The notes under the pieces: model-generated
Seen by the model: only the letters and a program-made list of their open reading frames with translations
Told to the model about the DNA's origin: nothing
Databases searched by the model: none
Program-made: the position numbers and the translations under genes
Source of the DNA: Candidatus Woesearchaeota archaeon
GTDB taxonomy: Archaea; Nanobdellota; Nanobdellia; Woesearchaeales; GW2011-AR4
Length of the DNA: 64,000 bases
Reading direction: 5' to 3'
NCBI GenBank assembly: GCA_002688775.1
Contig: NZDH01000004.1
Coordinates: 123,420-187,419 of the forward strand
In this document: positions 1 to 59,646 of the stretch, in pieces
Numbering within the stretch: the stretch's first letter is position 1
How the letters are laid out: every line of letters begins with the position of its first letter

Positions 1-11
1 ATATTTAAAGC

Positions 12-802: not shown

Positions 803-810
803 TTTATCCC

Positions 811-1498: not shown

Positions 1499-1567
1499 TG
1501 TTTAAATCAGATGATAAAACACATTAATTTGATTGATAAATATAAAATTATCCATAGAAATATTATT

Positions 1568-3532: not shown

Positions 3533-3603
3533 CGTAGATATTGGAAAAAATTGTCCATTTATAAAGGTTTTGAAAAAATAATTTAGCCCTACAATGCGCT
3601 AAA

Positions 3604-3724
3604 ATTCCGCCAATTCTATGATTAAAAGTTATCTAGTGGCGGAATTCGCTGAGTCAAGAACCGCCACTAACTGTCAAGGTCAATAATTTCTTGCAATATC
3701 GGTCACTGACAGGTGGTTCTTGAC
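3604..3724 (+). promoter_or_regulatory. Four-segment set of mutually exclusive hairpins (attenuator-like) between the divergent hppA and coiled-coil genes
   Basis: ATTCCGCCA (3604) pairs with TGGCGGAAT (3637). TAGTGGCGG (3634) pairs with CCGCCACTA (3661). GTCAAGAACCGCC (3653) pairs with GGTGGTTCTTGAC (3712), with one G.U pair that only works on the + strand. Confidence 0.4.
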
Positions 3725-3765
3725 AATAGTAAAAATTATATGCATCAAAGCATATCTACGATAAA

Positions 3766-6232: not shown

Positions 6233-6399
6233 AGGTAAAGTTATTTGCTGGTTGTTTAAAAATTTTATTATTCAACTCCTTGCTTTAATCCATAAATAAA
6301 GGTAAACAAGAAATGCAACAATCAAGACAAAATTAATTATGTGCAGAATGATTGGAAGATTTTTAAGAATTTTCTTCTTGGTTTTTTTGTTCATTATGG

Positions 6400-8175: not shown

Positions 8176-8187
8176 TGGTAAAAATTT

Positions 8188-9561: not shown

Positions 9562-9562
9562 A

Positions 9563-11299
9563 TCAAATCTTTAACTCCTTTTCCATCTGGCTTGTTAATT
9601 CTCCAAGTAATTTCTCATAATCCTTTACAAATTTCACTTCGCTTAACCTGTCTTTTGCTTTTGTAGTTATTATCTGCTGCAACCTCATGCCGCCATCAAG
9701 GGCTGCATTTGCGAGTTTTGAAAAGTGAAGAATTGATTTCATCATTTGGTATGTTTTCTTTGGTTCACAAAATGTGTCTATCTCATGGAACGCATTCTGC
9801 TGCAGTAAAACTTCCCTGATCAATCTGGCTACAAGCAAAGTGATCTGCTGTTTCTCAGGCAATGCATCTGAACCGACCAATTGGACGATTTCAAGCAATT
9901 TTTCCTCTTCCTGCAGGATTGTCATCATCTGTTCAACAAAATCATGCCAATCAGGTGCAATATTTTTTGCGAACCAAGGGTCAAGTGTATTTAAGTATAG
10001 AGAATATGAAGTAAGCCAATTTATTGAAGGGAAATGTCTTCTCTGGGCAAGTTTTGCATCCAAAGCCCAAAATACTTTTGTAACTCTCAAAGTGCTTTGC
10101 GTTACGGGCTCTGAAAAATCCCCTCCTGGTGGAGAGACAGCTCCAATAACACTGACGCTGCCTTCCTGTTTTGTTCCTAATGGTATTACACGACCTGCCC
10201 TTTCATAAAATTGTGCTAATCTTGTTGAAAGATAAGCAGGATAACCTTCTTCGCCAGGCATTTCCTCCAATCTTGAGGAAATTTCCCTCATTGCTTCTGC
10301 CCATCTTGATGTTGAGTCTGCCATCAACGCAACAGAGTAACCCATATCCCTGTAATATTCTGCTATTGTAATTCCTGTGTAAATGCTTGCTTCTCGCGCT
10401 GCAACTGGCATGTTTGAGGTATTTGCAATGAGCACTGTCCTGTTCATCAAAGGCTTGCCGCTTCTTGGATCAGTAAGTTCCGGGAATTCTGAAAGAACTT
10501 CTGTCATCTCGTTTCCACGCTCGCCACAGCCAACATAAACAATAATCTGGGCATCAGACCATTTTGCAAGCTGCTGCTGTGAAACTGTTTTTCCAGCTCC
10601 AAACGGACCAGGGATTGCTGCAACTCCTCCTTTTGCCAGCGGAAATAGTGCATCAAAAATTCTCTGGCCTGTAATCAACGGCAATTCTGGTTTTAGTTTA
10701 GAACTGACAGGCCTTGGAATCCTGACAGGCCAATTTTGCTTTAATCTCAGCTCAAACCCATTATCGAGTTTTCCTATTGCATCATTAACTGTAAATTTTC
10801 CTGACTTGATTTCTGTAATTTTGCCTTGTTGGTCTGGAGGAACCAAAATTTTATGGATTATTCCGGGATTTTCCTCAACTTCACCGATAATCTGGCCCGG
10901 AGAAACTTTTTCTCCGTTCTTAACAATAGCTTTGAAGTCCCATTTTTTTGTATGATCGAGACCAGGCGCATCAACTCCTCTTTTGATAAAATCACCCATC
11001 TGTTTTATCAGAACAGGCAAAGGTCTTTGAATGCCATCATAAATACTACTAAGCATTCCTGGACCAAGCTCAACACTTAATGGCTGGCCGGTATTCACAA
11101 CCGGTTCACCAGGTTTTATACCAGAAGTGTCTTCGTAAACCTGAATAATTGTCTTTTCGCCTTCAATCTGGATTACTTCGCCCATCAAGTTTTCATTTCC
11201 TACTCTGCAAACATCATACATTCTAGGCTTTATTCCTTTGGCTACAACAACCGGGCCTGCAATTCTGTATAAAACGCCTTTATCCATTTTATTCTTCAA
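9563..11299 (-). CDS. atpA: A/V-type ATP synthase catalytic subunit A
   Basis: Walker [10 protein letters not shown] and [10 protein letters not shown] motifs. No intein-sized insertion. The track start is TTG, and an ATG (MDKGVLY) lies at 11287. Confidence 0.97.
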
Positions 11300-15883: not shown

Positions 15884-15984
15884 GCGCCGGTAGCTCAGCT
15901 TGGATAGAGCGTCTGAATTCATTGACGAACCTCCTATTCTTGGGTGAGAGCAGAAGGTCGGGAGTTCGAATCTCCCCCGGCGCG
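15884..15984 (+). tRNA. Class-I tRNA with a 26-nt intervening sequence in the anticodon arm; anticodon unresolved (only TCA or TGA possible)
   Basis: Acceptor GCGCCGG/CCGGCGC, D arm GCTC-AGCTTGGATA-GAGC, variable AGGTC, T arm GGGAG-TTCGAAT-CTCCC. TATA-like TTTATAAA lies about 30 nt upstream. Confidence 0.8.
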
Positions 15985-30299: not shown

Positions 30300-30372
30300 A
30301 GCCCTGTAGTCTAGCGGTCAAGGATACGGCCCTTTGGAGGCTGAGACGGCAGTTCGAATCTGCCCGGGGCTA
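30300..30372 (+). tRNA. tRNA-Gln (anticodon TTG), no intron
   Basis: Acceptor AGCCCTG/CGGGGCT, anticodon arm CGGCC-CTTTGGA-GGCTG, T arm GGCAG-TTCGAAT-CTGCC, discriminator A. Confidence 0.9.
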
Positions 30373-30610: not shown

Positions 30611-31066
30611 ATGGCAAGAATGCATTCAAGGAAGAGAGGAAAGCATGGCTCCAAGAAGCCTGCTAAGAAAACAGCACCTTCCTGGATTAGATACAAGGCC
30701 AAGGAAGTGGAATTGTTAATAGCAAAACTTTCTAAGGATGGAAAGTCAACATCACAGATTGGAATCTTATTAAGGGATACTTATGGAATTCCAAATGTTC
30801 ACGCTCTGTGTGGAAAATCAGTAAGTGCAATTCTAAAGGAAAAAAAGATTGTTCCAGAAGTGCCTGAAAACTTAACTGCAATGTTCAGGAGATTTGCAGC
30901 AATCAAAAAGCATCTTGAGACCAACAAACATGATGAAACAGCAGCAAGAGGTTTGCATCTTGCAGAATCAAAGATCAACAGACTGGTTAAATACTACAAA
31001 AGAACAGGCAGGCTTGAAGAAACCTGGAAGTTTGATCCTGACAGAATGGGATTTTTTGCAGAATAA
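30611..31066 (+). CDS. rps15: 30S ribosomal protein S15 (uS15)
   Basis: MARMHSRKRGKHGSKKP N-terminus and archaeal S15/S13e length (151 aa). Confidence 0.95.
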   Translation: MARMHSRKRGKHGSKKPAKKTAPSWIRYKAKEVELLIAKLSKDGKSTSQIGILLRDTYGIPNVHALCGKSVSAILKEKKIVPEVPENLTAMFRRFAAIKKHLETNKHDETAARGLHLAESKINRLVKYYKRTGRLEETWKFDPDRMGFFAE

Positions 31067-32005
31067 TCATGCAGCTAATTCTTTTATTTTATTCACAACT
31101 TCATCAATCAGATAATCTGGAGTTGAAGCTCCTGCTGTAACACCAACTTTATCTTTTTGATTGAACCAATCAGCCTGTAATTGCTCTGCTGATTGGATGA
31201 AATAGGACTCAACACCTAATTCTTTGCATTTAGTATAGAGTTCTTTTGAATTGCTTGAGTTTTTTCCGCCAATGACAATTACAATGTCGGATTCTTTGGC
31301 GATTTCCTCTGTTCCGCTCTGCCTTTGCTTGGTTGGGTTGCAGATTGTGTCTACATAACCATATTTTTCAGATAAATCCCTCAAGCTTAATTGAATTTGC
31401 CCGAATTTATTTCCGCTTAGGTTTGAATTTATGTTTTCTATCAATTTTTTGTATCCATAAACAGACATTGTTGTCTGGGAAATGATGGCAACTTTTTCTG
31501 AATTGTTATTTTTTATGAACTCAAGTACTTTTTGATATTCCTCAGGCTCCTCGACAATTATTGTATCGTTCCCTTTTAAATGGAACTTTGTCCCTATAGA
31601 TTCCGGATGATCTGCTTTGCCGAAAATGATAACTTCATATCCGTTTTCTTTTAATTTAATGCCTACATTGTGGACTAAAGTCACTAAGGGGCAAGTTGCA
31701 TCTGTCAAATTATTGTCTTTTGTAATGGATTTCTCATTTAAAGTTTTATAAGTAGAACCTGGCTCACCGTGAGCTCTTAAAACAGTTATAGCGCCATCCG
31801 GGATTTCAGCAAGATTTTCCACAAAGACTATACCTTTGTTCCCTAAGTCATTTATTACTTTCTCATTGTGAACTAATTGTCCATGGACATATGTTTTGCC
31901 TTTGTTATTTTTTGCTACCTCTTCCGCTACTTCTATAGCTTTCTTTACTCCAAAGCAAAAGCCTGAATTTTTGGCTATTTTAATTTCCAAAACAATCCAC
32001 CCCAA
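31067..32005 (-). CDS. ispH: 4-hydroxy-3-methylbut-2-enyl diphosphate reductase (MEP pathway, last step)
   Basis: GFCFGVKKAIE, VHGQLVHNE, ATCPLVTLVH and TICNPT place the conserved Cys residues as in IspH/LytB. Confidence 0.9.
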   Translation of the reverse strand: MGWIVLEIKIAKNSGFCFGVKKAIEVAEEVAKNNKGKTYVHGQLVHNEKVINDLGNKGIVFVENLAEIPDGAITVLRAHGEPGSTYKTLNEKSITKDNNLTDATCPLVTLVHNVGIKLKENGYEVIIFGKADHPESIGTKFHLKGNDTIIVEEPEEYQKVLEFIKNNNSEKVAIISQTTMSVYGYKKLIENINSNLSGNKFGQIQLSLRDLSEKYGYVDTICNPTKQRQSGTEEIAKESDIVIVIGGKNSSNSKELYTKCKELGVESYFIQSAEQLQADWFNQKDKVGVTAGASTPDYLIDEVVNKIKELAA

Positions 32006-32027
32006 ACTTAAGTATTACTTTTTCCTT

Positions 32028-32876
32028 TTATATGGTTTTTGTCAAAAAAACAAACGGATAATCATACTGTATCTTGAAAAAAGCCTCCCTTGCTTCATAA
32101 ATGCTGTTGAAAATCCCAAATACGGTCGGACCTGAGCCAGACACCAATGCATTCAGTGCGTCATTTCTAAGCAGATTGGTTTTTATGTCATTAATTACCT
32201 TGTATTTTTTCATGACAATCGGCTCGAAATCATTATGCAGGTTATCTGCTATCTGGCTTATGTCTTTTTTTTCTATTGCCTTCACTAAATCTTTGATATC
32301 TGCCTTTGTCTTTATCTTTGGTTTTTTCCTGTCAAATGTAGAATAAGCCCATTTTGTTGAAACTCGGAAGCCCGGATTGATCAATACAACATTTATACTG
32401 AAAGATTTTTTTATTCTTTTTATTTTTTCACCAATGCCTTCAACTAATGCCGCATTTTCTGCAACAAAAAAAGGGACATCTGAACCAATTTGCGATGCCA
32501 GATTAATTAATTGCTTTTCCTTAAGCTTTAATCTCCATAATCTGTTCAGGTTCATCAATGCAGTTGCTGCATTGCTGCTTCCGCCTCCCAAGCCTGCCTC
32601 TAATGGTATATTTTTTTGAATAAATATCTTGATACCATACTTAACCTTATATTTTTTCTTTAACACCGATGCTACCTTATAAACAAGATTTTCTTCATTC
32701 TCAATATCTTTATTAGTGGATTCTACTATTATTCTATCTTCATTTATAGGCTCAATAGACATATTGTCGCTTAATTCTATGTTCTGCATAACTGACTGCA
32801 GGTTATGGTAGCCAGAGCTTAGTTTCCTGCCTATCTTCAGGAACAGGTTTATCTTTGCATATGAACTGATAGCCAT
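32028..32876 (-). CDS. ispE: 4-diphosphocytidyl-2-C-methyl-D-erythritol kinase
   Basis: AKINLFLKI...GYHNLQSV and the GHMP kinase motif PLEAGLGGGSSNAA. Confidence 0.9.
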   Translation of the reverse strand: MAISSYAKINLFLKIGRKLSSGYHNLQSVMQNIELSDNMSIEPINEDRIIVESTNKDIENEENLVYKVASVLKKKYKVKYGIKIFIQKNIPLEAGLGGGSSNAATALMNLNRLWRLKLKEKQLINLASQIGSDVPFFVAENAALVEGIGEKIKRIKKSFSINVVLINPGFRVSTKWAYSTFDRKKPKIKTKADIKDLVKAIEKKDISQIADNLHNDFEPIVMKKYKVINDIKTNLLRNDALNALVSGSGPTVFGIFNSIYEAREAFFKIQYDYPFVFLTKTI

Positions 32877-32966
32877 GATAGAATTGATAATACTAATAAT
32901 ATATTAATATTGCTGAATTTGATACTAAAAGATAGGTATATAAATACCAGCCGCCCTCTTATTTAG

Positions 32967-33350
32967 TTGGGTGGTAATATGGACTTAGATCTTATTGCTG
33001 ATGATGGCAAGATAAGTGTATTCAATGCAAAAAGGTTCCTTTCTGAGAGAATGGCAGGGCTACGTTTAACGTTTTCAGGGTCATTGAATTCTGCTATAAT
33101 CCAATGTGTTGACCCAGATTCTGGAGAGGTGATAGACTATAAAGCAGTGCATAGTGGTATTAAAGGACCTGATCCAGAAAACTACAGTGGAGGTAAAACC
33201 AGAATAGATGCTATTGTTCAAAACATTGAAGAAGATCTGTGGTTACTTAATTTTGAATTTGATAGTGGCAGAAACATGTATGTGTTCAGACCTGAACCAG
33301 AGTCACAACCACGAAGCACTGCATCCCCTTACCTTGCCCAAAGGCAGTAA
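32967..33350 (+). CDS. Hypothetical protein (orphan, opposite strand inside the MEP cluster)
   Basis: 127 aa ORF, GC-richer than the flanking genes. Its 3' end overlaps the ispDF 3' end by 65 nt. No motif recognised. Confidence 0.3.
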   Translation: MGGNMDLDLIADDGKISVFNAKRFLSERMAGLRLTFSGSLNSAIIQCVDPDSGEVIDYKAVHSGIKGPDPENYSGGKTRIDAIVQNIEEDLWLLNFEFDSGRNMYVFRPEPESQPRSTASPYLAQRQ

Positions 33351-34449
33351 GATTCTCTCCAGAAGTGTAGGTAATTCCAATTTTTTCTTTTTCTAAATCC
33401 AGTATTTTTGACATTGATTCCTTGATTTTGTCTGTATGCGGCTCAAGTTTTGGCCTACTAGCCTCTATCATGACACCAACATTGTTTAATTTTTGATTCT
33501 TTTCATTTAATTTATCTAAAATAACTTTAATATATTCTTTACTATCAATTACTCCTTTCTTTAACATTGGATCTGCATAATAACCTAATGATTTTTCTCC
33601 AATGGCTTGGCTTATTGCATTGAACAAAGCATGCAAAATAACATCCCCATCAGAGTTTGCCTCAAAACCAGCTTCATTTAGGATTTTACAGCCACCCAGA
33701 GTTAATTCCTTATTTGATGAGAATTTATGGCTATCCTGGCCAATTCCTATCCTGGTGAATCTGCCTGTTCTCCTAACTAGGATTCCTTCTGCAATTTTTA
33801 GATCATCATCTGTAGTGATTTTTATGTTTTCGTAAGAGCAAGGCACCAGCTCTACTTTTTGACCAATCAATTCCACCAATGAAACATCATCGGTAACTGT
33901 CAAATTTTTCTTTTTTGCATTTTCAAATGCTTCAAGAAACAATTTATTTCTAACAGCTTGCGGTGTTTGAACTTGAAATATGTCTTTTCTGTCGATTGTT
34001 CTTTCAACAAAATTATTATTTATTTTTTTTATGGTGTCCTTTAACTGAAATCCGACAACAGCTGCACCATTATTTTTTGCAGCTTTAATACAATCATCTA
34101 TTTCCTTTTCCCTGACTAATGGGTTGCTTGCGTTATGAACTACTACAATATCATTGCTCTTATTGTTTTTTATAGAAGTTAATCCATTATATACTGAATC
34201 CTGTCTTTCTTTGCCTCCTTCAACAATTTTTTTTATTTTGTCAAAGTTATATTTCTTTTTTATATTTTCAAGTATTTCAAAATTTTCTTTCTGGGTTACT
34301 ATTATTATCTCGTCGATATTTTTGCATTCATTGAAAACTTTGATTGTATAATATATTATAGGTTTATTAAATAATGGAAGAAATACTTTATTTCCATTCT
34401 TATTCATTCTTTTGCTATTGCCAGCTGCAACTATAATTGCATAATTCAT
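33286..34449 (-). CDS. ispDF: Bifunctional IspD/IspF (MEP cytidylyltransferase / MEcPP synthase)
   Basis: N-terminal IIVAAGNSKRM (IspD) and C-terminal IGIGQDSHKF...DGDVILHAL (IspF). Confidence 0.9.
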   Translation of the reverse strand: MNYAIIVAAGNSKRMNKNGNKVFLPLFNKPIIYYTIKVFNECKNIDEIIIVTQKENFEILENIKKKYNFDKIKKIVEGGKERQDSVYNGLTSIKNNKSNDIVVVHNASNPLVREKEIDDCIKAAKNNGAAVVGFQLKDTIKKINNNFVERTIDRKDIFQVQTPQAVRNKLFLEAFENAKKKNLTVTDDVSLVELIGQKVELVPCSYENIKITTDDDLKIAEGILVRRTGRFTRIGIGQDSHKFSSNKELTLGGCKILNEAGFEANSDGDVILHALFNAISQAIGEKSLGYYADPMLKKGVIDSKEYIKVILDKLNEKNQKLNNVGVMIEASRPKLEPHTDKIKESMSKILDLEKEKIGITYTSGENLTAFGQGKGMQCFVVVTLVQV

Positions 34450-35618
34450 TTTATTATTGTAATTTCCTCTTCAATGATATTTTTTGTTTTTTCTTTGATA
34501 TTTTTATCAATTGAAAGAATATCATTTAAGCCTGGATTTTTAATTATATTATGCTCATCCATCATTTTTCTGATCAATCTTGGAATGTCCAGAAATCTTA
34601 TTTTATTGTCTAAAAAGGCATGGACTGCAGCTTCATTTGCAGCATTCATTACTGCCGGCAGTGTTCCGCCTTTGATTCCTGCTTCATATGCGTAGTTCAA
34701 GCATGGAAACATATCAAAATCAGGATCTTTGAAGTCGAGAGTCTTTATTTTTGCAAGATCCAGTGATGCCTGCATATTAGTAAATCTTCCTGGATATGTT
34801 AATGCATACTGGATGGGTATTCTCATGTTTGGCAATCCAAGCTGCGCTATGACTGACCTGTCATTAAATTCAACCAATGAATGTATGACGCTTTGGGGGT
34901 GAATGACAATTTTGATTTTTTTATAATCAATCCCGTAAAGCCAATGTGTTTCAAGAACCTCAAAACCCTTGTTCATGAGAGTTGCGCTATCAATTGTTAT
35001 CTTTGCACCCATATTCCATGTTGGGTGCTTGAGAGCATCACTTGCTGTGACATCTTCAAATTGTTCTCTTGAATGATTTCTAAAAGGTCCTCCTGAACAG
35101 GTTAATGTTATTTTATTGACATCGTTGATATTTTCTCCGTTTAAGCATTGGAAAATTGCACTGTGCTCGGAATCAATAGGCATCAATTTTACATCGTTTT
35201 TCTTTATCTCATTTATGATGGCGGAACCTGCTGCAACTAAAGTTTCTTTGTTTGCGAGCGCAATATTTTTTTTGTTTCTGGCAGCATTGTAAGTTGGTTC
35301 AATACCAACAGAACCGACCAGAGAATTTACAACAGTGTCTGCCTCATTTAAAGCTGCAATTTTGTTTAATCCTTGAATTCCAGAATAAACTTGTGTAGAA
35401 GTGAAATTCATCAATTCGTTTGCTTTTGTTTTATCCATTACAGCAACTGCTGCCGGCTTAAATTCGTTGATCTGCTGCCTTAATAAATCAATATTTTTAT
35501 TTGTAGTAAGGCCAACAACCTTGAATTCATCAGGAAATTGTTTTACTATGTCCAAAGTCTGCGTGCCGATACTGCCTGTCGATCCCAGAATTGATATGTT
35601 TTTCATTTTAATTGCCAT
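34446..35618 (-). CDS. dxr: 1-deoxy-D-xylulose 5-phosphate reductoisomerase
   Basis: ILGSTGSIGTQTLDIV, LANKETLV, PIDSEHSAIFQC and HPTWNMG motifs. Confidence 0.95.
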   Translation of the reverse strand: MAIKMKNISILGSTGSIGTQTLDIVKQFPDEFKVVGLTTNKNIDLLRQQINEFKPAAVAVMDKTKANELMNFTSTQVYSGIQGLNKIAALNEADTVVNSLVGSVGIEPTYNAARNKKNIALANKETLVAAGSAIINEIKKNDVKLMPIDSEHSAIFQCLNGENINDVNKITLTCSGGPFRNHSREQFEDVTASDALKHPTWNMGAKITIDSATLMNKGFEVLETHWLYGIDYKKIKIVIHPQSVIHSLVEFNDRSVIAQLGLPNMRIPIQYALTYPGRFTNMQASLDLAKIKTLDFKDPDFDMFPCLNYAYEAGIKGGTLPAVMNAANEAAVHAFLDNKIRFLDIPRLIRKMMDEHNIIKNPGLNDILSIDKNIKEKTKNIIEEEITIIK

Positions 35619-36669
35619 TGCTGGCTATTTCATTGATTTCTTTTAATAGAACCTCTTTTATCTCATTATCGTTAATTCTTTTGACAATTTTACCATCTCT
35701 ATATAGGAGATGATTTCCTGGAGCCCCTACAATCCCAATGTCTGATTTTTTGCTTTCCCCGGGGCCATTAACTGCGCATCCCATGACGGCAACCTTAATC
35801 GGTTTTTTTATTTTTTCCGTTTGGTTTTCAAGCTCTTCAACCAATTTGATCACATCTATTTCTGTTCTTGCACATGTTGGACAACTTGTAACTTGAACGC
35901 CATCATTTCTTAATCCAAGTGACCTTAAAATGTATTTTCCGACTTTTACTTCTTCTTTTGGATCTTCAGAAAGCGAGATTCTTATCGTATCGCCAATGCC
36001 TTCAGAAAGCAGCATTCCTATGCCCATTGAAGACTTTACAGTTCCAGGAATTTTTGATCCTGATTCTGTAACTCCTAGATGCAATGGGTAATCTGTTTTT
36101 TCAGCAAATGATCTATACGCTTCCACCATTCTCGGAACATCGGATGCTTTTAATGAAACAATTGTATCATAGAAATCCAAATCTTCCAGAATTTTAAGAT
36201 GGCGCATTGCACTTTCAACCATTGCTGCAGGCGAATAACCATGTTTCATGAACAAGTCCCTTTCAAGGGAGCCAAGATTTACACCGATTCTCATCGGAAT
36301 TCCATGATCTTTTACTGTCTTGACAACTTGCTGCACTTTATCCGGATTCCCTATGTTGCCGGGGTTGATTCTTAGTTTATCGACGTATTTTACTGCCTCC
36401 AAAGCAATCCTGTAATCAAAATGTATGTCAACAACAAGCGGAATCGTGATATTTTCTCTAATTTCCTTTAATGATTTCGCTGCTTCCATTGTCGGAGCGC
36501 TTACTCTTATTATTTCGCATCCCACATCTTCCAATCCGTGAATCTGGTCAATAGTTGCTTTAACATCTGTTGTATCTGTTGTTGTCATTGACTGAACAGT
36601 TATCGGTGCATCTCCTCCGATGAATAATTTTCCAACCTTGACTTTGCGTGATTTTCTTCTTTGTAGCAT
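35608..36669 (-). CDS. ispG: 4-hydroxy-3-methylbut-2-en-1-yl diphosphate synthase
   Basis: GGDAPITVQSMT, RINPGNIG, SCPTCART and VMGCAVNGPGE motifs of GcpE. Confidence 0.95.
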   Translation of the reverse strand: MLQRRKSRKVKVGKLFIGGDAPITVQSMTTTDTTDVKATIDQIHGLEDVGCEIIRVSAPTMEAAKSLKEIRENITIPLVVDIHFDYRIALEAVKYVDKLRINPGNIGNPDKVQQVVKTVKDHGIPMRIGVNLGSLERDLFMKHGYSPAAMVESAMRHLKILEDLDFYDTIVSLKASDVPRMVEAYRSFAEKTDYPLHLGVTESGSKIPGTVKSSMGIGMLLSEGIGDTIRISLSEDPKEEVKVGKYILRSLGLRNDGVQVTSCPTCARTEIDVIKLVEELENQTEKIKKPIKVAVMGCAVNGPGESKKSDIGIVGAPGNHLLYRDGKIVKRINDNEIKEVLLKEINEIASNGN

Positions 36670-36709
36670 TTTTTATTGGGTTTTTTGATTTGTTTTTATG
36701 AGTTTTTTT

Positions 36710-36887
36710 GATTTTAATAGTTTTTTATATTATTTTTATTATTTAATTTCTTTTAATTTTATTATTGGAGATTAGCCGCATATACATTAATTATTAATTC
36801 ACTAACAATTTAACAATATTTTTTAATTCGTTTCATCTGTAATGTACTGGGCTCTTAATAACAATGAAAAACTATTTTAAAAAATAA
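36710..36887. repeat. Intergenic repeat family R1, copy B (between the dxs stop and the ispG start)
   Basis: Same conserved blocks as copies A and C. Ends are inverted-repeat-like: GATTTTAATAGTTTTTTAT versus ATGAAAAACTATTTTAAAA. Confidence 0.75.
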
Positions 36888-36940
36888 ACCAACCCCTTTT
36901 TAATAATAAAAAATATTTCTAAAAAATTAAAATCTTAAAA

Positions 36941-38839
36941 TTATTCCTTCTTCAAAATTTCCACAATTGCTTTCTTTATACTTTCTTTATCGATTCCTGC
37001 AAGCTTTTTCTGTATGTCGGGCTTGCCATGATCTATAAACTTGTCAGGAATCCCTATTCTTTTTACATTAGCTTTTATTCCATTATCTTCCAGCAATTCC
37101 AATACTGCAGATCCAAATCCCCCATTAATTGTTCCTTCTTCCAATGTGATAATATTTTTTATTTTATTAGCATATTTTAATATCACTTTTTCATCAAGGG
37201 GCTTGACGAATCTTGCATTAACAATTGTTGCATTGCATTTGAGTTCTTCAACAGCATACATGGCATCATACAAAATAGGGCCTACGCCTAGAATCAATAA
37301 ATCACTGCCTTGTTCCAGTATTTCTGCTTTTCCGATTTCAAGCTCTCTTAATTCCGGATCTAAGCCAACACCAATACCTCCACCTCTGGGATATCTTAAG
37401 GTTGAAGGCCCTTGCAGTAAAGTAGCTGTGTAAAGCATATGCTGCAATTCGTTTTCGTCTTTTGGAACCATAATTGTAATATTTGGGACTAATCTGAAGT
37501 AAGCAATGTCAAATGGCCCATTATGGGTTGGGCCGTCATCTCCAACTAAGCCTGCCCTGTCCAAAGCAAATATCACTGGGAGATTTTGCAAGCATACATC
37601 GTGGATTATCATGTCAAACGATCTTTGCAAGAAAGTCGAGTATATAGCACAAACTGGTTTCATTCCGTTGATTGCTAGGCCAGCTGCAAATGTGACGGCA
37701 TGCTGCTCTGCTATCCCTACGTCAATTGTCCTGTCTGGAAAGTGTTTTTCAAATTTATTTAATCCAGTACCGGCCTTCATTGCTGCTGTTATGGCAACAA
37801 TTTTTTTATCTTCTTCTGCAATTCTTATCAAAGCATTGGCAAATGCGTCTGTATATGTAATGTTTGTGGATTTAACATATTTCTGGCCATTGATGGGGTC
37901 AAAGGGAGACATGCCATGGAATTTGTCCAGATCTTTTTCTGCAAATTCATATCCTTTGCCTTTTTCTGTTTTTACATGCAATAAAACCGGACCTTTCAAA
38001 TTTTTTACATTTTCCAGTGCAGTAATCAGCTCGTCAATGTTATGGCCGTCAATCGGTCCGAAGTATTGAAAGCCAAGGCTTTCAAAGAAAATTCCTTCGC
38101 TGTATATATTTCTCAGTCTTTCCTGTGCTTTGAAAACTTTTTCAAGTTCTTGTTCCCCAATTCCTGGGATTTTTTTTAATAAATTCCTTGTTCTTTTTCT
38201 TAATTGGAAATATTTTGGATTTAGAACAATCTTATTCAGATAATTAGAGATAGCACCGACATTTGGAGAGATGCTCATTCGGTTATCGTTTAAGATAACC
38301 AGCATGTTTGTTTTAGAAGCGCCTAGATTGTTTAATCCTTCAAAAGCCAGGCCAGCTGTCAATGCTCCATCTCCAACAATTACAACAACTTTATCATCTT
38401 CATTTTTGTAATCTCGGGCTTTTGCAATTCCCAGGGCTGCTGAAATTGAAGTTGCTGCATGACCTGCTCCAAAAACATCATATTCTGATTCTGAAATATT
38501 GCAAAAACCACATACGCCTTTGTACTGCCTTAAAGTGTGAAAATTATCCCTTCTTCCTGTAATAAGTTTGTGTGGGTAACTCTGATGTCCTGTGTCTATA
38601 ATGATTTTGTCTTTTGGTGCATCAAATATATAATGAACTGCCAGTGTCAGTTCAACTGCCCCTAATGGACTGCCCAAATGACCGCCTGTTTTTGAAACTA
38701 CATTCAGGATTTTACCTCTTATTTCCTGTGCAAGAACTTTAAGCTGGTCTTTGCCCAGTTTCTTAAGGTCATTTGGGAAATTAACTTTATCAAGAAAACT
38801 AGTCTTTTCTAGATGGTCCTGTTGTTGCATTAAACACAC
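36941..38839 (-). CDS. dxs: 1-deoxy-D-xylulose-5-phosphate synthase
   Basis: TGGHLGSPLG, the TPP motif GDGALTAG...NDN and the transketolase-like C-terminal domains. 632 aa. Confidence 0.95.
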   Translation of the reverse strand: MCLMQQQDHLEKTSFLDKVNFPNDLKKLGKDQLKVLAQEIRGKILNVVSKTGGHLGSPLGAVELTLAVHYIFDAPKDKIIIDTGHQSYPHKLITGRRDNFHTLRQYKGVCGFCNISESEYDVFGAGHAATSISAALGIAKARDYKNEDDKVVVIVGDGALTAGLAFEGLNNLGASKTNMLVILNDNRMSISPNVGAISNYLNKIVLNPKYFQLRKRTRNLLKKIPGIGEQELEKVFKAQERLRNIYSEGIFFESLGFQYFGPIDGHNIDELITALENVKNLKGPVLLHVKTEKGKGYEFAEKDLDKFHGMSPFDPINGQKYVKSTNITYTDAFANALIRIAEEDKKIVAITAAMKAGTGLNKFEKHFPDRTIDVGIAEQHAVTFAAGLAINGMKPVCAIYSTFLQRSFDMIIHDVCLQNLPVIFALDRAGLVGDDGPTHNGPFDIAYFRLVPNITIMVPKDENELQHMLYTATLLQGPSTLRYPRGGGIGVGLDPELRELEIGKAEILEQGSDLLILGVGPILYDAMYAVEELKCNATIVNARFVKPLDEKVILKYANKIKNIITLEEGTINGGFGSAVLELLEDNGIKANVKRIGIPDKFIDHGKPDIQKKLAGIDKESIKKAIVEILKKE

Positions 38840-39137
38840 CCCTTAAAAATTGAAGTTTTTCAAGGTTTATAAAACTTTTCAATGTATATATAGAAAATAA
38901 AGAATAAGTGCATGTCAAAAACCAACAGACAATTTTGTCCCGTTTCATCGAAAATATAACATAATTGACAACAACATTGGACTTATGTCCATCAATCAAA
39001 GACTGATGGTATATTTTCGACATATAAAAAGAAAATGTTCGAAAATCCTACTGCTTTAGAAGATTTCCGTCACACTTCTTAGCATGTTTCGCATTTGTCT
39101 CCGCCTTTCATGAATTCCACCTCCATATGATTAAAAT

Positions 39138-39202
39138 ATTGGGGGTGAAGGACTTTTCCGGGAAAAGAGGGTTCAAACCCAGAGTTCCTTCAAATTCCCA
39201 AT
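39138..39202 (+). ncRNA. Candidate structured RNA (long closing stem with two inner hairpins) in the 550-nt gap upstream of rpl1
   Basis: ATTGGG/CCCAAT plus TGAAGGA-C/G-TTCCTTCA enclose CTTTTC-CGG-GAAAAG and GGGT-TCAA-ACCC. Locally GC-rich. Strand not established. Confidence 0.3.
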
Positions 39203-39388
39203 AATACTAGAAAGAGTATATTTGCTTTATATTCTATCTACAAGTGTTAAAGCATGGTTTGAAGGTTTAAATTAAGTGGATTAATAAACGGTGTTTATGA
39301 TTAAAAGGGAGTTTGTCATAGTTAACTTTAAAAACTCCATAATATTTCCTTATCTATTACCCGTTGTACTACCTAGGTAGGAGGGCAG

Positions 39389-40069
39389 ATGAACAAAGAA
39401 CAAATACAAGCTGCATTAGCAAAAGCAAAGGATATTTCTAGCAAAAGGAATTTCAAGCAAAGCTATGATCTAATCATAAATTTAAAGGGAATTGATAAAA
39501 AGAAGCAAGAGCATCAGATTGACGCGTTCATAACATTGCCGCATTCCAGAGGAAAAAAATTAAAGATATGTGCCATAGTCGGGCCAGAGCTTGAAGAACA
39601 AGCTAAAGGCATTTATGATTCTGTTATTTTACCTACTAATTTTCAAAAATACAAGGAAAAGAAAGATGTGAAGAAGGTTGCAAATGAATTTAATTTCTTT
39701 ATTGCGCAGGCAAATATAATGCCGAAGATTGCAACAACATTCGGTAGAGTTTTTGGGCCAAGAGGAAAGATGCCAAACCCAAAATTCGGAGGGGTTGTGC
39801 CGCCAAACGCCAATATTAAGCCATTGTATGAAAAGCTGCAAAGGACCATTAGAGTAAACACAAAGACTGCTCCGATGATCCAGTCCAGTATAGGAACTGA
39901 AGACATGGACAAAGAAGAGATAACCGATAATGCGCTTGCTATTTACGACTCACTTTTACACCTGTTGCCAAATGAAAAACACAACATAAAAGATGTTCAC
40001 ATTAAGCTAACTATGGGTAAGCCTGTCAAAGTCGGAGAAAAACTTAAGGTAGTAAAAGAGACTAAGTAA
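39389..40069 (+). CDS. rpl1: 50S ribosomal protein L1 (uL1)
   Basis: Typical uL1 sequence and length (226 aa). GGAGGG Shine-Dalgarno-like sequence upstream. Heads the L1-P0-P1 cluster. Confidence 0.95.
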   Translation: MNKEQIQAALAKAKDISSKRNFKQSYDLIINLKGIDKKKQEHQIDAFITLPHSRGKKLKICAIVGPELEEQAKGIYDSVILPTNFQKYKEKKDVKKVANEFNFFIAQANIMPKIATTFGRVFGPRGKMPNPKFGGVVPPNANIKPLYEKLQRTIRVNTKTAPMIQSSIGTEDMDKEEITDNALAIYDSLLHLLPNEKHNIKDVHIKLTMGKPVKVGEKLKVVKETK

Positions 40070-40070
40070 A

Positions 40071-41336
40071 ATGACCCAGATACAAGCGCACGTAGCAGAA
40101 TACAAAAAGAAAATTGTAGGTAATTTGGTTAATCTGATTAGCAAAAATCCTATTGTCGGTGTTGTGAATATGGAGAATTTGCCAGCGCCTCAGCTGCAGA
40201 AAATGAGGGCCCAGCTAAGAGGCAAATTTTACATTACAATGACCAAGAGAAGGCTGATCAAACTAGCTTTTGAGAAAAGCAAATCCAAGACTAAAGGAAT
40301 TGAAGAGCTAGAATCACATCTTGGTGGAATGCCTGCTTTGATATTCACGAAAGAAAATCCCTTCAAATTAAGCAAGACACTGCAGAAAAGCAAAAGTCCA
40401 GCGCCTGCAAAAGCAGGACAAACAGCACCAAGAGACATTGTTGTGAACAAAGGAGCAACTCCTTTTGCACCTGGACCAATCATTGGAGAATTGGCTGTTG
40501 CAGGCATAAAATCAGGAGTTGAGGGCGGAAAAGTAGCGATAAAAGAAGACACTGTTGTTGTAAAAGCCGGAGAAAAGATAAAGCCAAAAGTTGCTGAGAT
40601 CTTAACAAGATTAGGAGTAGAACCAATGGAAGTTGGCTTGGATTTAGTGGCTGTTCTTGAAAATGGCCTTATCTATAAGAGGGACATATTATCCATTGAT
40701 GAAAGTGAATATATAAACAGATTATCAAATGCATCAAGATGGGCGTTTAATCTTGCAAATTTCGTAAGCTATCCAACAAAAGAAACAATAAAATTACTAA
40801 TTGGAAAGGCTTTCAATGATGCAAAATCACTTGGAATTGCTCAGGAAATATTTGATAAAGTGATTATTGATTCACTATTGGGAAAAGCAGAGCAGCAAAT
40901 GCTTAGCCTGAAAGCAGAAGCAAACATCCAGGTTGTTGAGAAAAAGGTTGAAGAACCAACTAAGGAAAAAGTTGGATCAAAGCCAGAGGTAAAAAAAGAG
41001 GAAGCTAAACCTGAACCAAAAAAGGAAGTCGCAAAATCGGAAGAGAAAAAAGAAAAAATTGAGGCAAAGCCTGAAGTCAAAAAGGAAGAGTCCAAACCTA
41101 AGACCGAAGAAAAACAGAAAGAAGAGCCAAAACCAGAGAAAAAGATAGAAGAAGTAAAGCCTAAAACTCAAGATCCAAAGCAAAAAGCAGAATCAACTGA
41201 AATTAAGGCCCCTACAAGAGAGGAATTAGAAGCAAACATAAGGATGAGGGAAAAAGAAAAAGAGATTAAGGATGTTGAGAAAATAGCTCAGGATCTTCAA
41301 AGAAAAGCAATTAAAGATCAAGAAAAGAAAAAATAA
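40071..41336 (+). CDS. rpl10: 50S ribosomal stalk protein P0 (uL10) with a long Lys/Glu/Pro-rich C-terminal extension
   Basis: The N-terminal 280 aa are P0-like (ENLPAPQLQKMRAQLRG). The C-terminal 130 aa or so are KPEVKKEE-type repeats. No GLxxLF terminal motif. Confidence 0.9.
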   Translation: MTQIQAHVAEYKKKIVGNLVNLISKNPIVGVVNMENLPAPQLQKMRAQLRGKFYITMTKRRLIKLAFEKSKSKTKGIEELESHLGGMPALIFTKENPFKLSKTLQKSKSPAPAKAGQTAPRDIVVNKGATPFAPGPIIGELAVAGIKSGVEGGKVAIKEDTVVVKAGEKIKPKVAEILTRLGVEPMEVGLDLVAVLENGLIYKRDILSIDESEYINRLSNASRWAFNLANFVSYPTKETIKLLIGKAFNDAKSLGIAQEIFDKVIIDSLLGKAEQQMLSLKAEANIQVVEKKVEEPTKEKVGSKPEVKKEEAKPEPKKEVAKSEEKKEKIEAKPEVKKEESKPKTEEKQKEEPKPEKKIEEVKPKTQDPKQKAESTEIKAPTREELEANIRMREKEKEIKDVEKIAQDLQRKAIKDQEKKK

Positions 41337-41352
41337 AAATAATAAATAAAGT

Positions 41353-41682
41353 ATGGAGGCAAAAATGGAATATGTATATGCAGCAATGTTGCTTCACAAA
41401 GCAGGTCAAAAAGTCGATGAAGCTGGCGTCAAGAAAGTTCTTGAAGCAGCTGGCGTCAAGGTAGACGATGCAAGGGCTAAGGCACTTGTAGCAGCTTTGG
41501 AAGGAGTAAACATAGACGAAGCAATAGAAAAGGCAGCAGTTGCACAAGTCGCAGCAGCACCAGCAGCGGCTCCATCAGGAGACGGAAAGGCTGAGGCAAA
41601 AGTTGACGAAAAGAAGAAGGCAGCTGAAGAGAAGAAAAGCGAAGAATCTGCAGCGGCAGGTCTAGGCGCTTTATTCGGCTAA
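41353..41682 (+). CDS. rpl12: 50S ribosomal stalk protein P1 (L12e)
   Basis: [11 protein letters not shown]..., an Ala/Pro hinge and the terminal AAGLGALFG. The likely true start is the MEYVY Met at 41365. Confidence 0.93.
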
Positions 41683-50088: not shown

Positions 50089-50199
50089 GACCGCGGGCGA
50101 GAATCGAACTCGCGCCAAGCGGATTTCAAAGCAAGATGACAACCCTAAGTTGCAACCAGCTACCACAACCGCTTATTCTACCATTAAACTACCGCAGTC
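50089..50199 (-). tRNA. tRNA-His (anticodon GTG) with encoded G-1 and a 39-nt intron after position 37
   Basis: Sense strand: G-1, ACTGCGG/CCGCGGT acceptor, anticodon stem AGCGG/CCGCT, loop TTGTGG|intron, T arm GCGAG-TTCGATT-CTCGC, discriminator C. Confidence 0.85.
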
Positions 50200-52801: not shown

Positions 52802-52909
52802 GCGGGGGTGGCAGAGCCTGGCCAAATGCGCAAATTCATGATAAATGGAGTGGATGGTTGAGGGCCTTGTCCCTTAGTGGGTGCGAGGGTTCGAATCCCT
52901 TCCCCCGCA
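52802..52909 (+). tRNA. tRNA-Leu (anticodon GAG) with a 22-nt intron at non-canonical position 29/30
   Basis: Class II tRNA. Acceptor GCGGGGG/CCCCCGC, variable arm TCCCTTAGTGGGTGC. Removing 52834-52855 yields CAAGG-TTGAGGG-CCTTG. Confidence 0.85.
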
Positions 52910-54348: not shown

Positions 54349-55278
54349 ATGAACTCGTATAGAAATCAAAAAATTTGTTTGAAAGAATTGTATTGGAATA
54401 AACATATGTCAACATCACAAATTGGAAGAATATATAATTGTAACGCTGAAACAATTCGCAGATATATGATTAAATTTGGAATTGATAGAAGAAAGTTACA
54501 TGAAAGAAAATATAAAATATCAAAGAAACAGTTAGAAAATTTGTATCTTAAAAAAAGATTATCTATTATAGAAATTGCTAGGAAATATGGCTGTTCTCAA
54601 TGGGTAATTTGGTCTCTACTTAGATACCATAGGATAAGAGCAAGAGGCACTAATGATTATCATTCATGGAAGGCCCCTGCTAATCAAATTAAGCCATCTT
54701 TAGAGGTTACTTCAACTCTTGCGTACGTTATAGGTGTTATTTTAGGAGATGGTTGGGTTTACAAAAGAGGCTATTGGTATACTATAGGTTTAGAAGCATT
54801 AGATAAAAAATTTTGTGAAAGTTTTTACCATGCGTTAAAGCAATTGAAAATTAATCCTTCAATTTTTCATAGTAGAAACTATTGGAGAGTTGTATGTTCC
54901 TCAAAATTATTTTATATATGGTTCAAATCTTTAGATTTTAATAAAATAAAGGAAATTTCCGAAAAATATCCTATAGATTTCTTAAGAGGTTTCTATGAAA
55001 GCGAAGGAAATTTCTCTACTTATAAAAGTAAGAAATATTTTTTTATAACATACAAAATAACTATTGTGAATACTGATAAAAAACTTATCGATTTAGTAAA
55101 ATTTTTATTAGATAGATTAGGTTTCCATCCTACATATCATAAGAGAAATCAGTTAAAATCAAATTGGAAGCCACTTTGGGCTTTAACTTTGTGTAGAAAA
55201 TTGGAGGTTAAGCAATTCATTCAATTGATAAAACCCTGTATCAAAACTGGAGAGAGAAGGCGCAGTAGAAACATTTAA
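54349..55278 (+). mobile_element. Free-standing LAGLIDADG homing-endonuclease-like gene with two N-terminal HTH repeats
   Basis: Two LAGLIDADG motifs (LAYVIGVILGDGW and FLRGFYESEGNF). Duplicated N-terminal HTH units of about 45 aa. Inserted between rps9 and rpoN. Confidence 0.8.
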
Positions 55279-56937: not shown

Positions 56938-59646
56938 ATGGTAGATTTTAACAAAATAGCCCATAAATGGCAGAAGAAATGGGAAGAGAAGAAAATCTTC
57001 AATGTGAAAGAAGATTTGAAGAAAAAAAAATTCTATTGCCTGGAGATGTATCCCTATCCTTCTGAAAGACTTCACATGGGGCATCTAAGGAATTATTCCA
57101 TAGGAGATGCGCTTGCCCGTTACAAGAGAATGCAGGGCTTTAATGTTTTATATCCGATGGGTTATGATTCATTTGGGTTGCCGGCTGAGAATGCTGCCAT
57201 AAAGCACGGAATCGATCCTGAGAAATGGACATTGGCGAATATCGATGCGATCAGGCAGCAGCAAAAAGACATGGGTTTTTCTTATGACTGGAACAGGGAG
57301 ATTGCAAGCCTGCACGAGGATTATTACAAATGGAACCAGTGGATATTCCTAAAATTTTATGAAAAAGAATTGGCTTACAAGAAAAAAGCTGCTGTCAATT
57401 GGTGTCCAAGCTGCAATACAGTGCTTGCGAATGAGCAAGTTGTGGAAGGCAAATGCTGGCGATGTAGCAGTGAAGTTAATGAGAAAATGCTGGATCAATG
57501 GTTCTTTAAAATTACTAAATATGCTGATGAATTACTAGACGACATTAAAAAACTGAATAATTGGCCTGAAAGAGTCAGGGTCATGCAAAAAAATTGGATT
57601 GACAGAAAAGAATGGATTGATATTGATTATGAAATCGAAGGAACTGACAAGAAAGTAACTGTTGCAACAACAAGACCAGATACAAACTTTGGTGCAACTT
57701 TTATTGTAATAGCGGCAGAACACCCATTATTATCAAAAGAAAGCAATCTAATCCCGGATAAATACAGAAAAACTGTCGATAGTTACATAGAAAAAGCAAA
57801 GAAAAAAACAGTTGATGAAAGAATTAATGAGGGTATCAAGAAAACTGGTGTTTTTACGGGTTTATACTGCATCAATAATTTAACTAAAACAAAAATGCCT
57901 GTATGGGTCGCTGACTTTGTTCTGATGTCTGTTGGAACTGGTGTTGTAGTTGGAGTTCCCGGGCATGATATAAGAGATTTTGATTTTGCAAAAGAATTTA
58001 ACTTGCCAATAATAAGGGTTGTGGTTGGGCCTGATGGCGACAAAACTGGGATAACAAGAAGGGAACAAGTCCAGGAAGAAGCAGGAACTATGGTTAATTC
58101 TGATTTTTTGAATGGAATGGATATTCACAAAGCGAAGAAAAGGATAATGGATTATTTTGAAGAAAAAAAATGGGGAAGGAGATCCATACGTTACAAACTA
58201 AGAGACTGGCTTATATCACGTCAAAGATATTGGGGCACACCAATTCCAATAATTTATTGTGAAAAATGCGGCATTGTTCCTGTTCCTTATGAAGATCTTC
58301 CTGTTAGATTGCCAAAGCATGACAAATGCAAATTTACTGGAAAAGGAAATCCATTGGCAACCTGCAATGAGTTTGTTGAAACAAAATGTCCGAAATGCAA
58401 AGGAAATGCAAAAAGAGATACTGATACAATGGACACTTTTGTTGACAGCTCGTGGTATTTCATAAGATACTGCTCACCTAAATTTGAAAAAGGGCCTTTT
58501 GACAAGAAAGCAGCAGAGTATTGGATGCCTGTTGATCAATATATTGGGGGGATAGAGCATGCAATATTGCACCTGCTTTATGCTAGATTCTTTACAAAGG
58601 CATTAAGAGATATTGGATTAGCTGCTGTTGACGAGCCTTTTTCAAGATTGCTGACCCAGGGAATGGTGATAAAAGACGGCGCAAAGATGAGCAAAAGCCT
58701 TGGCAATGTTGTTGACCCTGCTGAAATAAGCGACAAATACGGACCTGACACAGCAAGGTTGTTCATTTTATTTACTGCTTTGCCTGAAAAAGAATTGGAG
58801 TGGAGTGATAGGGGAGTTAATGGTTCATTTAGATTCTTAAATAGAATTTACAATTTAATTAATGATAATCTGGATAATATTTCCTTGAAGCATTATGACG
58901 AGCGTAAATTGGACAATAATGACAAGTATGTCTTGAGTAGGATGCACCTAACAATAAAAAATGTGACTGAGCATATTGAAGATTTTGAATTTAGCCTGGC
59001 AATTGGAAAAATAATGGAATATGTCGATGTTTTACAGAGATACAAAGAGAAGAATGAGGGAGTTTTTGGCGAAGCTGCTAAAAATCTTGTGTTGTTGATG
59101 CTGCCTTTCATACCTCATTTAAGCGAAGAGTTTTGGCACATGATCAAAGGCAATGGTTTTGCATCATTACAGAAATGGCCTAGCTATGATGAAAATAAAA
59201 TAGATAAAAGAGCAGAAGCAGTCGCTATGTTTATTGAATATACAAGAAAAGACATAATTGAAATTTTAAGATTGACAAAAATAGAGAAACCAGAGAAAAT
59301 TAAGTTATTTGTGGCTGATAAATGGAAATATGATTTTATCTCCAAATTGAAAGAAGAGATGAAAAAAACACGGAATGCCGGAGAGATAATCAAAACAATC
59401 ATGTCCTCTGATTTGAAAAGATATGGGCAGGAAATAACAAAACTAATTCCAAAATTAGTGAATGATGAAACTAAAATAACCCAAATTGTTTTGGATCAAG
59501 AAACAGAATTTGATGCTTTAAACAATGCTTCTAAGGATTATAAAGAAGAGCTTAATTGCAGTATTGAGGTTATAGCAGCTGACAAATCAAAAGAGAGCAA
59601 GGCAAAACAGGCATTTCCAGGCAAAGCGGCTATTTTGGTTGGGTGA
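56938..59646 (+). CDS. leuS: Leucyl-tRNA synthetase, bacterial-type architecture
   Basis: The HMGH (HIGH) and KMSKS motifs. [15 protein letters not shown] and [20 protein letters not shown] are bacterial LeuRS hallmarks. Confidence 0.93.

Follow-up and report, generated by a model that had tools for sequence, protein, structure and literature searches.

Contig NZDH01000004.1 of a Candidatus Woesearchaeota archaeon (GenBank assembly GCA_002688775.1) carries, within the 64 kb stretch analysed here (positions 123,420 to 187,419 of the forward strand, hereafter the window), a complete bacterial-type methylerythritol phosphate (MEP, or MEP/DOXP) pathway with an ispDF fusion gene, clustered in an archaeal genome belonging to the DPANN group. 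Six minus-strand genes, dxs, ispG, dxr, ispDF, ispE and ispH, are found between the gene for ribosomal protein S15 (rpS15) and the rpL1-P0-P1 ribosomal stalk operon (Table 1). In this pathway, Dxs forms 1-deoxy-D-xylulose 5-phosphate (DXP) from pyruvate and glyceraldehyde-3-phosphate, and Dxr converts it to MEP; IspD then generates 4-diphosphocytidyl-methylerythritol (CDP-ME), which is phosphorylated by IspE, and IspF cyclises the product to methylerythritol cyclodiphosphate (MEcPP). The remaining steps are catalysed by two [4Fe-4S] enzymes, IspG and IspH, which convert MEcPP via hydroxymethylbutenyl diphosphate (HMBPP) to isopentenyl diphosphate (IPP) and dimethylallyl diphosphate (DMAPP). 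Both require a low-potential electron donor and, as IspH gives both IPP and DMAPP, an isomerase is not strictly needed.

The identities of the genes were established with NCBIfam equivalog hidden Markov models with curated cut-offs, and cross-checked by Pfam, with which they were concordant. An earlier annotation made without database searches, the sequence-only reading, had proposed that the six genes encode all seven MEP steps, and this is confirmed: when searched against models of MEP enzymes, all six proteins matched, each exceeding its curated equivalog cut-off (Table 1). Structural comparisons extend these assignments. Dxs matches its counterparts in the Protein Data Bank (PDB) at up to 617 bits, 2o1s and 2o1x being solved homologues. 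IspG is only partially matched by the long-type models NF001912 and NF002534, and its alignment to 3noy, presumably the Aquifex aeolicus IspG, shows that the CPTC…GC…GE cluster ligands, three cysteines and a glutamate, are kept. Similarly, when aligned to 3dnf, presumably the A. aeolicus IspH, the window's IspH is found to retain the three cluster cysteines (in GFCFGV, DATCP and TICN) and the HN…HPE residues. The IspDF fusion consists of an MEP cytidylyltransferase (residues ~1-226) followed by an MEcPP synthase (residues ~233-385); it has the Pfam domains IspD and YgbB, aligns over its full length to the bifunctional IspD/IspF structures 1w55 and 8xhu and, on inspection of the translation, contains the IspF Zn-site motifs (Asp/His/His) GIGQDSH and DGDVILHA. 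IspE possesses the N- and C-terminal GHMP kinase domains of Pfam, and its scores against mevalonate kinase models are weak and far under their cut-offs.

The genes are closely packed, although less uniformly than had first been described. Overlaps of 11 nt between ispG and dxr (35608-35618) and of 4 nt between dxr and ispDF (34446-34449) had been reported and are both present, the former given a dxr start at 35618, as there is no such overlap with the alternative start at 35606. The description of the six genes as adjacent stands in that all lie on the minus strand at the positions then listed, but not between ispDF and ispE, where there is a 409-nt gap holding a plus-strand open reading frame (ORF). 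The start of ispH is ambiguous between 32005 and 31990, and its stop codon abuts that of the convergent rpS15. The true start of dxs is likely to be the ATG at 38830, giving a product of 629 aa: a Shine-Dalgarno-like AGGGGTG is found just 5' of this codon, and 629-aa calls are present in three public assemblies. The AT-rich spacers suggest a division into three transcription units, dxs, ispG-dxr-ispDF and ispE-ispH, with the dxs-ispG spacer acting as a putative terminator and promoter region between the first two, and the region 5' of ispE as the candidate promoter of the third; ispG, dxr and ispDF may be translationally coupled through their overlaps. The spacer of about 550 nt between the divergent dxs and rpL1 is unusually long, given how compact the genome otherwise is; nothing in Rfam matches it, and its AT-richness is not uniform.

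Table 1. Features of the window and sites of accessory genes in the MEP clusters of related loci (L-numbers are handles of the compared sequences; positions refer to the sequence in the second column; scores are given against model cut-offs).
Feature	Sequence	Position	Strand	Remarks
Membrane pyrophosphatase	window	1568-3532	-	Passes sodium-translocating pyrophosphatase equivalog, 986 vs 546
Phosphoglycerate kinase (PGK)	window	5027-6232	-	Sole NCBIfam match is the bacterial bifunctional PGK/triosephosphate isomerase model, under cut-off (480 vs 883)
tRNA, over-length	window	15884-15984	+	
tRNA-Gln	window	30300-30372		Sole standard-length tRNA in the window
rpS15	window	30611-31066	+	Archaeal/eukaryal-type; Pfam Ribosomal_S13_N and Ribosomal_S15
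ispH (lytB)	window	31067-32005	-	HMBPP reductase, step 7; TIGR00216 267 bits vs 188; Pfam LYTB
ispE	window	32028-32876	-	CDP-ME kinase, step 4; TIGR00154 259 bits vs 139
Region 5' of ispE	window	32877-32978	-	AT-rich; TATA-like TTTATATA and ATATTAATATATT
Small ORF	window	32979-33350	+	123 aa from ATG 32979; 127 aa from TTG 32967
ispDF	window	33286-34449	-	387 aa; steps 3 and 5; IspD domain TIGR00453 227 bits vs 181; IspF domain TIGR00151 156 vs 116
dxr (ispC)	window	34446-35618	-	DXP reductoisomerase, step 2; NF009114 538 bits vs 461; TIGR00243 507 vs 316; three Dxr Pfam domains
ispG (gcpE)	window	35608-36669	-	HMBPP synthase, step 6; short bacterial two-domain type; NF001540 496 bits vs 345; TIGR00612 433 vs 280
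dxs-ispG spacer	window	36670-36940	-	271 nt, AT-rich; T-runs and TATA-like stretches
dxs	window	36941-38839	-	Dxs; TIGR00204 853 bits vs 466; Pfam DXP_synthase_N, Transket_pyr, Transketolase_C
dxs-rpL1 spacer	window	38831-39388		Non-coding
rpL1-P0-P1 stalk operon	window	39389-41682	+	Divergent from dxs
L1	window	39389-40069	+	Pfam Ribosomal_L1
P0	window	40071-41336	+	Pfam Ribosomal_L10 and RL10P_insert
P1	window	41353-41682	+	Assigned by position, sequence and matches in relatives
tRNA, over-length	window	50089-50198	-	
tRNA, over-length	window	52802-52909	+	
Free-standing ORF	window	54349-55278	+	Helix-turn-helix and LAGLIDADG_3 (homing-endonuclease-like)
Leucyl-tRNA synthetase (LeuRS)	window	56938-59646	+	TIGR00396 (leuS_bact) 983 bits vs 548; leuS_arch 279 vs 648
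Accessory gene site	L001	7830-8836		
Accessory gene sites	L008	7720-8726; 11164-12006		
Accessory gene site	L003	9433-10368		
Accessory gene site	L005	4020-5030		
Accessory gene site	L018	11140-12240		
Accessory gene site	L011	2146-3018		
Accessory gene site	L017	975-1814		
Accessory gene site	L028	4943-9998		
Accessory gene site	L013	5574-9989		
Accessory gene site	L019	7937-8614		

The host is a marine Woesearchaeota archaeon, placed by GTDB in the Nanoarchaeota, Woesearchaeales, within the DPANN. Its Dxr is 100% identical to that of a deposit named 'Candidatus Woesearchaeota archaeon', the nearest loci are those of Woesearchaeota metagenome-assembled genomes (MAGs), and the exact genome is already in public deposit with the MEP genes annotated. 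The flanks of the cluster had been described as archaeal, and Pfam bears this out for rpS15 on one side and L1 and P0 on the other, with P1 recognised by its position, its sequence and its relatives. The same description of the rest of the window is upheld by an archaeal RNase P RNA (99 bits), over-length tRNAs and archaeal ribosomal, transcription and ATPase genes. These comprise subunits of an A-type ATPase (ATP synthase), Spt4, RpoE, S24e and S27-family proteins, and an S13-S4-S11-RpoD-L18e-L13-S9 cluster, alongside GatD/GatE, CDC48, an ATP-dependent DNA ligase and diphthine synthase. A bacterium of the Candidate Phyla Radiation (CPR) was considered as the host and ruled out by the archaeal RNase P and the archaeal ribosomal and transcription proteins. 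The three over-length tRNAs (101-110 nt) were detected with Rfam but not with ARAGORN, and presumably contain introns.

As the MEP route is otherwise bacterial or plastidial, its presence on an archaeal contig might reflect an artefact of assembly or binning, through which a bacterial fragment was mis-joined into archaeal sequence; the sequence-only reading had suggested that a chimera at either flank be looked for. This is excluded by three independent assemblies (L048 from Tara/ENA, L049 from JGI and L050 from NCBI, GCA_030745935.1), which are 99.995-100% identical to the window over positions 25608-46669, a stretch of about 21 kb spanning both junctions of the cluster. Furthermore, an identical IspG protein is listed in 27 blocks of a collection of public assemblies, and in 15 of these blocks there are contigs of 50-200 kb; the junctions with rpS15 and with L1/P0 recur in many species-level genomes at 60-89% protein identity; and the codon usage of the cluster equals that of the host. 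Some support for a mis-join comes from one short contig, L051, in which identical ispG, dxr and ispDF genes are preceded by other sequence upstream of 36856. An artefact at this locus is accorded virtually no credence.

The distribution of the locus was assessed by scanning one genome per GTDB species for IspDF and comparing the loci by tblastn of the window's proteins. The scan recovered 30 species-level genomes of Woesearchaeota/Nanoarchaeia with IspDF at 58-71% identity. Many of them have in common the order (coiled-coil protein)-P1-P0-L1, dxs-ispG-dxr-ispDF-ispE-ispH, rpS15: L1/P0 are found upstream of dxs in eight loci (L001, L008, L014, L020, L026, L028, L029 and L030), and rpS15 directly follows ispH in many. 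Where contigs are sufficiently long, the window's MEP proteins share 64-89% identity with their counterparts in these relatives (about 25 genomes), and its ribosomal neighbours 69-84%. Across six complete loci, the mean pairwise divergence of the MEP proteins is 0.21 and that of L1, P0 and S15 together is 0.23; the MEP enzymes are therefore constrained as strongly as ribosomal proteins. In a set of 18 genomes, distances between MEP proteins are also correlated with those between rpS15 sequences (r=0.68, Mantel p≈0.0008), although this is partly due to one divergent genome (Spearman 0.37). A Mantel test of all MEP and ribosomal genes at the six loci, whose taxa are nearly equidistant, had no power (r=0.39, p=0.14). 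Divergence in the upstream half of the cluster closely follows that in the downstream half (r=0.99, 18 genomes). In GC content, GC at third codon positions and codon usage, the six MEP genes cannot be told apart from 28 genes of the host (p=0.19-0.34), and GC is flat across the cluster, so that the suggestion that the cluster shares its host's composition, any transfer being old or ameliorated, is sustained.

The phylogeny, inferred by neighbour-joining (NJ), is of Dxr alone, with the other five genes being placed by synteny and identity. Among the best 120 homologues of Dxr, identities are 72-80%, apart from the 100% match to itself, and all those with an organism name are Woesearchaeota or Nanoarchaeota. 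In a bootstrapped tree of 121 sequences, 23 Woesearchaeota sequences, including that of the window, are monophyletic (100/100). The sequence-only reading had implied that the cluster was a novelty; instead the proteins group within a well-sampled archaeal clade, and the trait is already published. Synteny, co-divergence and amelioration therefore argue that the cluster was inserted once, ahead of the radiation of the clade, and has descended vertically since. A horizontal transfer that was recent and specific to this genome, with a present-day bacterium as donor, would account for the bacterial type of the proteins, and both the Dxr subfamily model and the Staphylococcus schleiferi structure discussed below point to Firmicutes-like sequences. 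However, the best Dxr matches outside the clade are 49-57% identical, against 72-80% within it, amelioration is complete, the insertion site is common across the clade and the clade's Dxr proteins are monophyletic, making such a transfer extremely unlikely.

The preferred history, of a single old insertion, can be set out as follows. The MEP genes were acquired from bacteria long ago, before the Woesearchaeota clade radiated, and inserted between rpS15 and the L1-P0-P1 operon, becoming fully adapted to the composition of the host; inheritance has been vertical ever since, and purifying selection has acted on the genes as strongly as on the ribosomal proteins beside them. The cluster is accordingly read as the complete and probably functional MEP pathway of a marine Woesearchaeota archaeon, an anciently acquired trait inherited vertically under purifying selection, and a probability of roughly 0.93 is attached to this explanation as a whole.

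The donor is harder to name than the age of the acquisition. A comparison of Dxr with 1.84 billion representatives clustered at 50% identity yielded the non-clade matches given above, and none of the non-clade representatives in this library exceeded about 60% identity to any Dxr of the clade. Five of the 20 nearest representatives are named, as Micrarchaeia, Nitrospirota, Lachnospiraceae, Fibrobacterota and an unclassified 'bacterium', at approximately 50-57% identity; as these nearest relatives are taxonomically mixed, similarity alone does not identify the donor. For ispG, a donor from the FCB (Fibrobacteres-Chlorobi-Bacteroidetes) group appears unlikely, given that the window's enzyme is of the short two-domain type. 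Bacteria of that group carry long-type IspG. The best PDB match of Dxr is the enzyme of the Firmicute S. schleiferi (6mh4, 408 bits, with the next at 328), which agrees with the attribution to Firmicutes by Castelle & Banfield and by Huang et al. (PMC8421398).

A different origin has been considered in which the set was assembled piecemeal in the ancestor of the Woesearchaeota from several bacterial donors, with Firmicutes-like dxr and ispG and CPR-like ispDF, and without a block transfer. This would fit the report by Huang et al. (PMC8421398) that the nearest bacterial relatives vary between genes, the FCB/CPR affinity suggested for one enzyme by Hoshino & Gaucher (PMC6107057) and the differing gene orders of other DPANN (L027, L031, L032 and L034), as well as the similarity of the IspD half, which is greater to the monofunctional IspD 5ddt (168 bits) and smaller to the known IspDF fusions (118 bits). 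The tight co-divergence of the two halves of the cluster means, though, that any assembly predates the sampled Woesearchaeota radiation; the mixture of named Dxr neighbours at about 50% identity makes donor calls from nearest neighbours weak; and it is other DPANN, and no bacterium, that form the sister of the clade in the Dxr tree. Piecemeal assembly is consequently regarded as unlikely, while still deserving consideration. That sister placement (L027, of the Micrarchaeota, L031, L034 and P0123, with 57-67% bootstrap support) comes from an NJ tree of one gene, and is a lead rather than a result. In combination with the monophyly of DPANN for one enzyme (PMC6107057), it lends modest support to the more speculative and rather doubtful view that all DPANN MEP genes stem from one ancient transfer from a bacterium, with later passage vertically or between DPANN lineages and reshuffling of gene order. 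If so, the set might have become fixed between rpS15 and L1-P0-P1 in the ancestor of the Woesearchaeales, and the locus might then have gained a lineage-specific small antisense gene and become a hot spot for the insertion of accessory genes.

With regard to function, the MEP proteins are predicted from their sequences to be enzymatically active. Nothing recognisable as the low-potential electron donor of IspG and IspH is visible in the window. According to Huang et al. (PMC8421398), MEP is the only route in Woesearchaeota genomes, and it is on this literature, rather than on the window, that the view is founded that MEP probably replaces mevalonate as the sole source of IPP. Within the 64 kb of the window there are no genes for HMG-CoA synthase, HMG-CoA reductase, mevalonate kinase or isopentenyl phosphate kinase. 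Conversely, the genes could be kept for another role, such as the supply of DXP for thiamine or pyridoxal or of MEcPP as a stress metabolite, or could be a decaying relic. Such a role would be compatible with the absence of downstream isoprenoid genes from the window and with the reported absence of geranylgeranylglyceryl phosphate synthase (GGGPS) and digeranylgeranylglyceryl phosphate synthase (DGGGPS) from these genomes (PMC8421398). Yet all seven steps are intact, including the terminal Fe-S reductases with their catalytic residues; conservation across the clade resembles that of ribosomal proteins, and with only part of the pathway in use ispG and ispH would not be kept; and UbiA prenyltransferases have been reported near the cluster in relatives by Castelle et al. 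(PMC8204110). Retention for another purpose is therefore held to be very unlikely.

A number of points nevertheless weigh against a functional, vertically inherited pathway, in addition to the influence of one divergent genome on the MEP-rpS15 correlation. In the literature searched, there is no report of expression, enzymology, complementation or labelling for an archaeal MEP enzyme. Downstream use of the products is not visible in the window, whose 64 kb contain no prenyl-diphosphate synthase, GGGP or DGGGP synthase, UbiA, IDI or lipid genes, and GGGPS and DGGGPS are, as already mentioned, reported to be absent from these genomes. The AT-rich spacers are the sole ground for the putative three-unit transcriptional model. 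Finally, L051 (ENA ERZ27286378 k119_469768) joins ispG to another upstream context, at its positions 1-9813: it is identical to the window only over 33392-36856, and upstream of the latter position, which is within the dxs-ispG spacer, it has in place of dxs unrelated genes for a KaiC-like ATPase and a hypothetical protein of 1468 aa. Whether the contig reflects a rearrangement in the strain or a chimera made by mis-assembly in that sample, the conclusion on the locus is unaffected.

The plus-strand ORF between ispDF and ispE, which is convergent with ispDF and overlaps its 3' end by 65 nt, is a fast-evolving small protein gene inside the MEP cluster. It is annotated as a gene in public assemblies, under 'Candidatus Woesearchaeota archaeon', and positional homologues of 24-30% identity are found antisense immediately after ispDF in L001, L017, L022 and L028, sharing a GPD…LDA.V.NI.D.L motif. 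The protein belongs to no Pfam family, and a search of 5.8 billion proteins returned its own sequence as the sole match; a single-sequence AlphaFold (AF2) model was unusable (pLDDT 42).

The cluster is at its most compact in the window; in relatives, accessory genes are present within it at variable points (Table 1). These insertions include a nucleotidyltransferase and HEPN pair, S-adenosylmethionine-dependent methyltransferases, a FabD-like acyltransferase (PF00698), a TRM13-like methyltransferase, RadC and a 906-aa DNA methylase, as well as several ORFs without a family; the FabD-like acyltransferase is found inside the MEP clusters of L003, L005 and L018. A number of the related loci (L002, L004, L006, L009, L010, L012, L013, L015, L021 and L023-L026) have third-party annotation titles naming an 'uncultured Methanosarcinales archaeon', despite possessing a Woesearchaeota-type cluster and flanks, and these titles are almost certainly a taxonomic mislabel.

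Other genes in the window were also noted. The body of LeuRS is of bacterial type, with the editing domain PF13603 at the bacterial position, whereas for its final ~130 residues the sole match is to the C-terminal domain of LeuRS from the archaeon Pyrococcus horikoshii (1wz2, residues 844-966, E 8.8e-7), which suggests a hybrid, possibly a bacterial enzyme adapted to archaeal tRNA-Leu. The model matched by PGK hints that this enzyme, too, may be of bacterial type. The membrane pyrophosphatase passes a sodium-translocating model, and the homing-endonuclease-like ORF is located just 3' of the L18e-L13-S9 genes.

The locus is thus real, but already known: MEP in Woesearchaeota has been published since 2018, and elaborated at least five times. 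The first report, cited in PMC8204110, is that of Castelle & Banfield in 2018. Hoshino & Gaucher 2018 (PMC6107057) found that a few DPANN hold MEP enzymes through horizontal gene transfer, with one enzyme being monophyletic across DPANN. Castelle et al. 2021 (PMC8204110) described a 52-genome clade of Woesearchaeota with co-located MEP genes, and Huang et al. 2021 (PMC8421398) found MEP to be restricted to subgroups F and J of the Woesearchaeota, with an ispD/F fusion in most members of the latter. Subsequently, MEP was reported in Woesearchaeota MAGs from marine oxygen-deficient zones (mBio 2024, PMC10936187), and MEP genes in orders of the Micrarchaeota (PMC12892359). What is added here is confirmatory: the locus is not chimeric, its insertion site is fixed clade-wide, its conservation is at the level of ribosomal proteins and its amelioration is complete. 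The existence of an archaeal lineage with a bacterial route to isoprenoid precursors is important biology, relevant both to the 'lipid divide' and to the use of bacterial genes by DPANN archaea in patching their reduced metabolisms.

Compared with known systems, the locus is closest to the Woesearchaeota MEP clade (PMC8204110; subgroup J of PMC8421398), with which it shares its lineage, the seven activities, their co-location, the ispD-ispF fusion and bacterial ancestry. The gene order and ribosomal flanks are common to both, and with the window's Dxr inside the clade there is no essential difference beyond the compactness of the cluster. Some relatives differ in having UbiA, G3P dehydrogenase or bacterial fatty-acid genes near the cluster (PMC8204110), none of which is near it in the 64 kb of the window. 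Other DPANN, comprising Micrarchaeota, Iainarchaeum-like and unclassified archaeal MAGs, also possess bacterial-type MEP genes, but their proteins are only 39-57% identical to those of the window (39-55% in L027, L031, L032 and L034) and are encoded in different orders: dxr-ispDF-dxs in L027, inverted ispE and ispH followed by dxr-ispDF-dxs-ispG in L031, and an unfused ispF, ispE and ispD in L034. There is no sign of the rpS15 and L1-P0-P1 flanks in the examined DNA of these loci.

Bacterial MEP enzymes of solved structure (3dnf, 3noy, 6mh4, 2o1s/2o1x and 1w55) are homologous to the window's proteins over their full length, and the Fe-S ligands and catalytic residues of IspH and IspG (3dnf and 3noy) are shared. 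In most bacteria the MEP genes are scattered; here the host is archaeal and all six genes are at one locus. Unlike the junctions of bacterial operons, the spacers before ispG, ispE and dxs resemble archaeal-type promoter regions. By contrast, the archaeal mevalonate pathways, whether of the archaea-, haloarchaea-, Thermoplasma- or eukaryote-type, reach the same products, IPP and DMAPP, by a non-homologous route, within which mevalonate kinase is, like IspE, a GHMP kinase, the two being distantly related, as reflected in weak matches below threshold.

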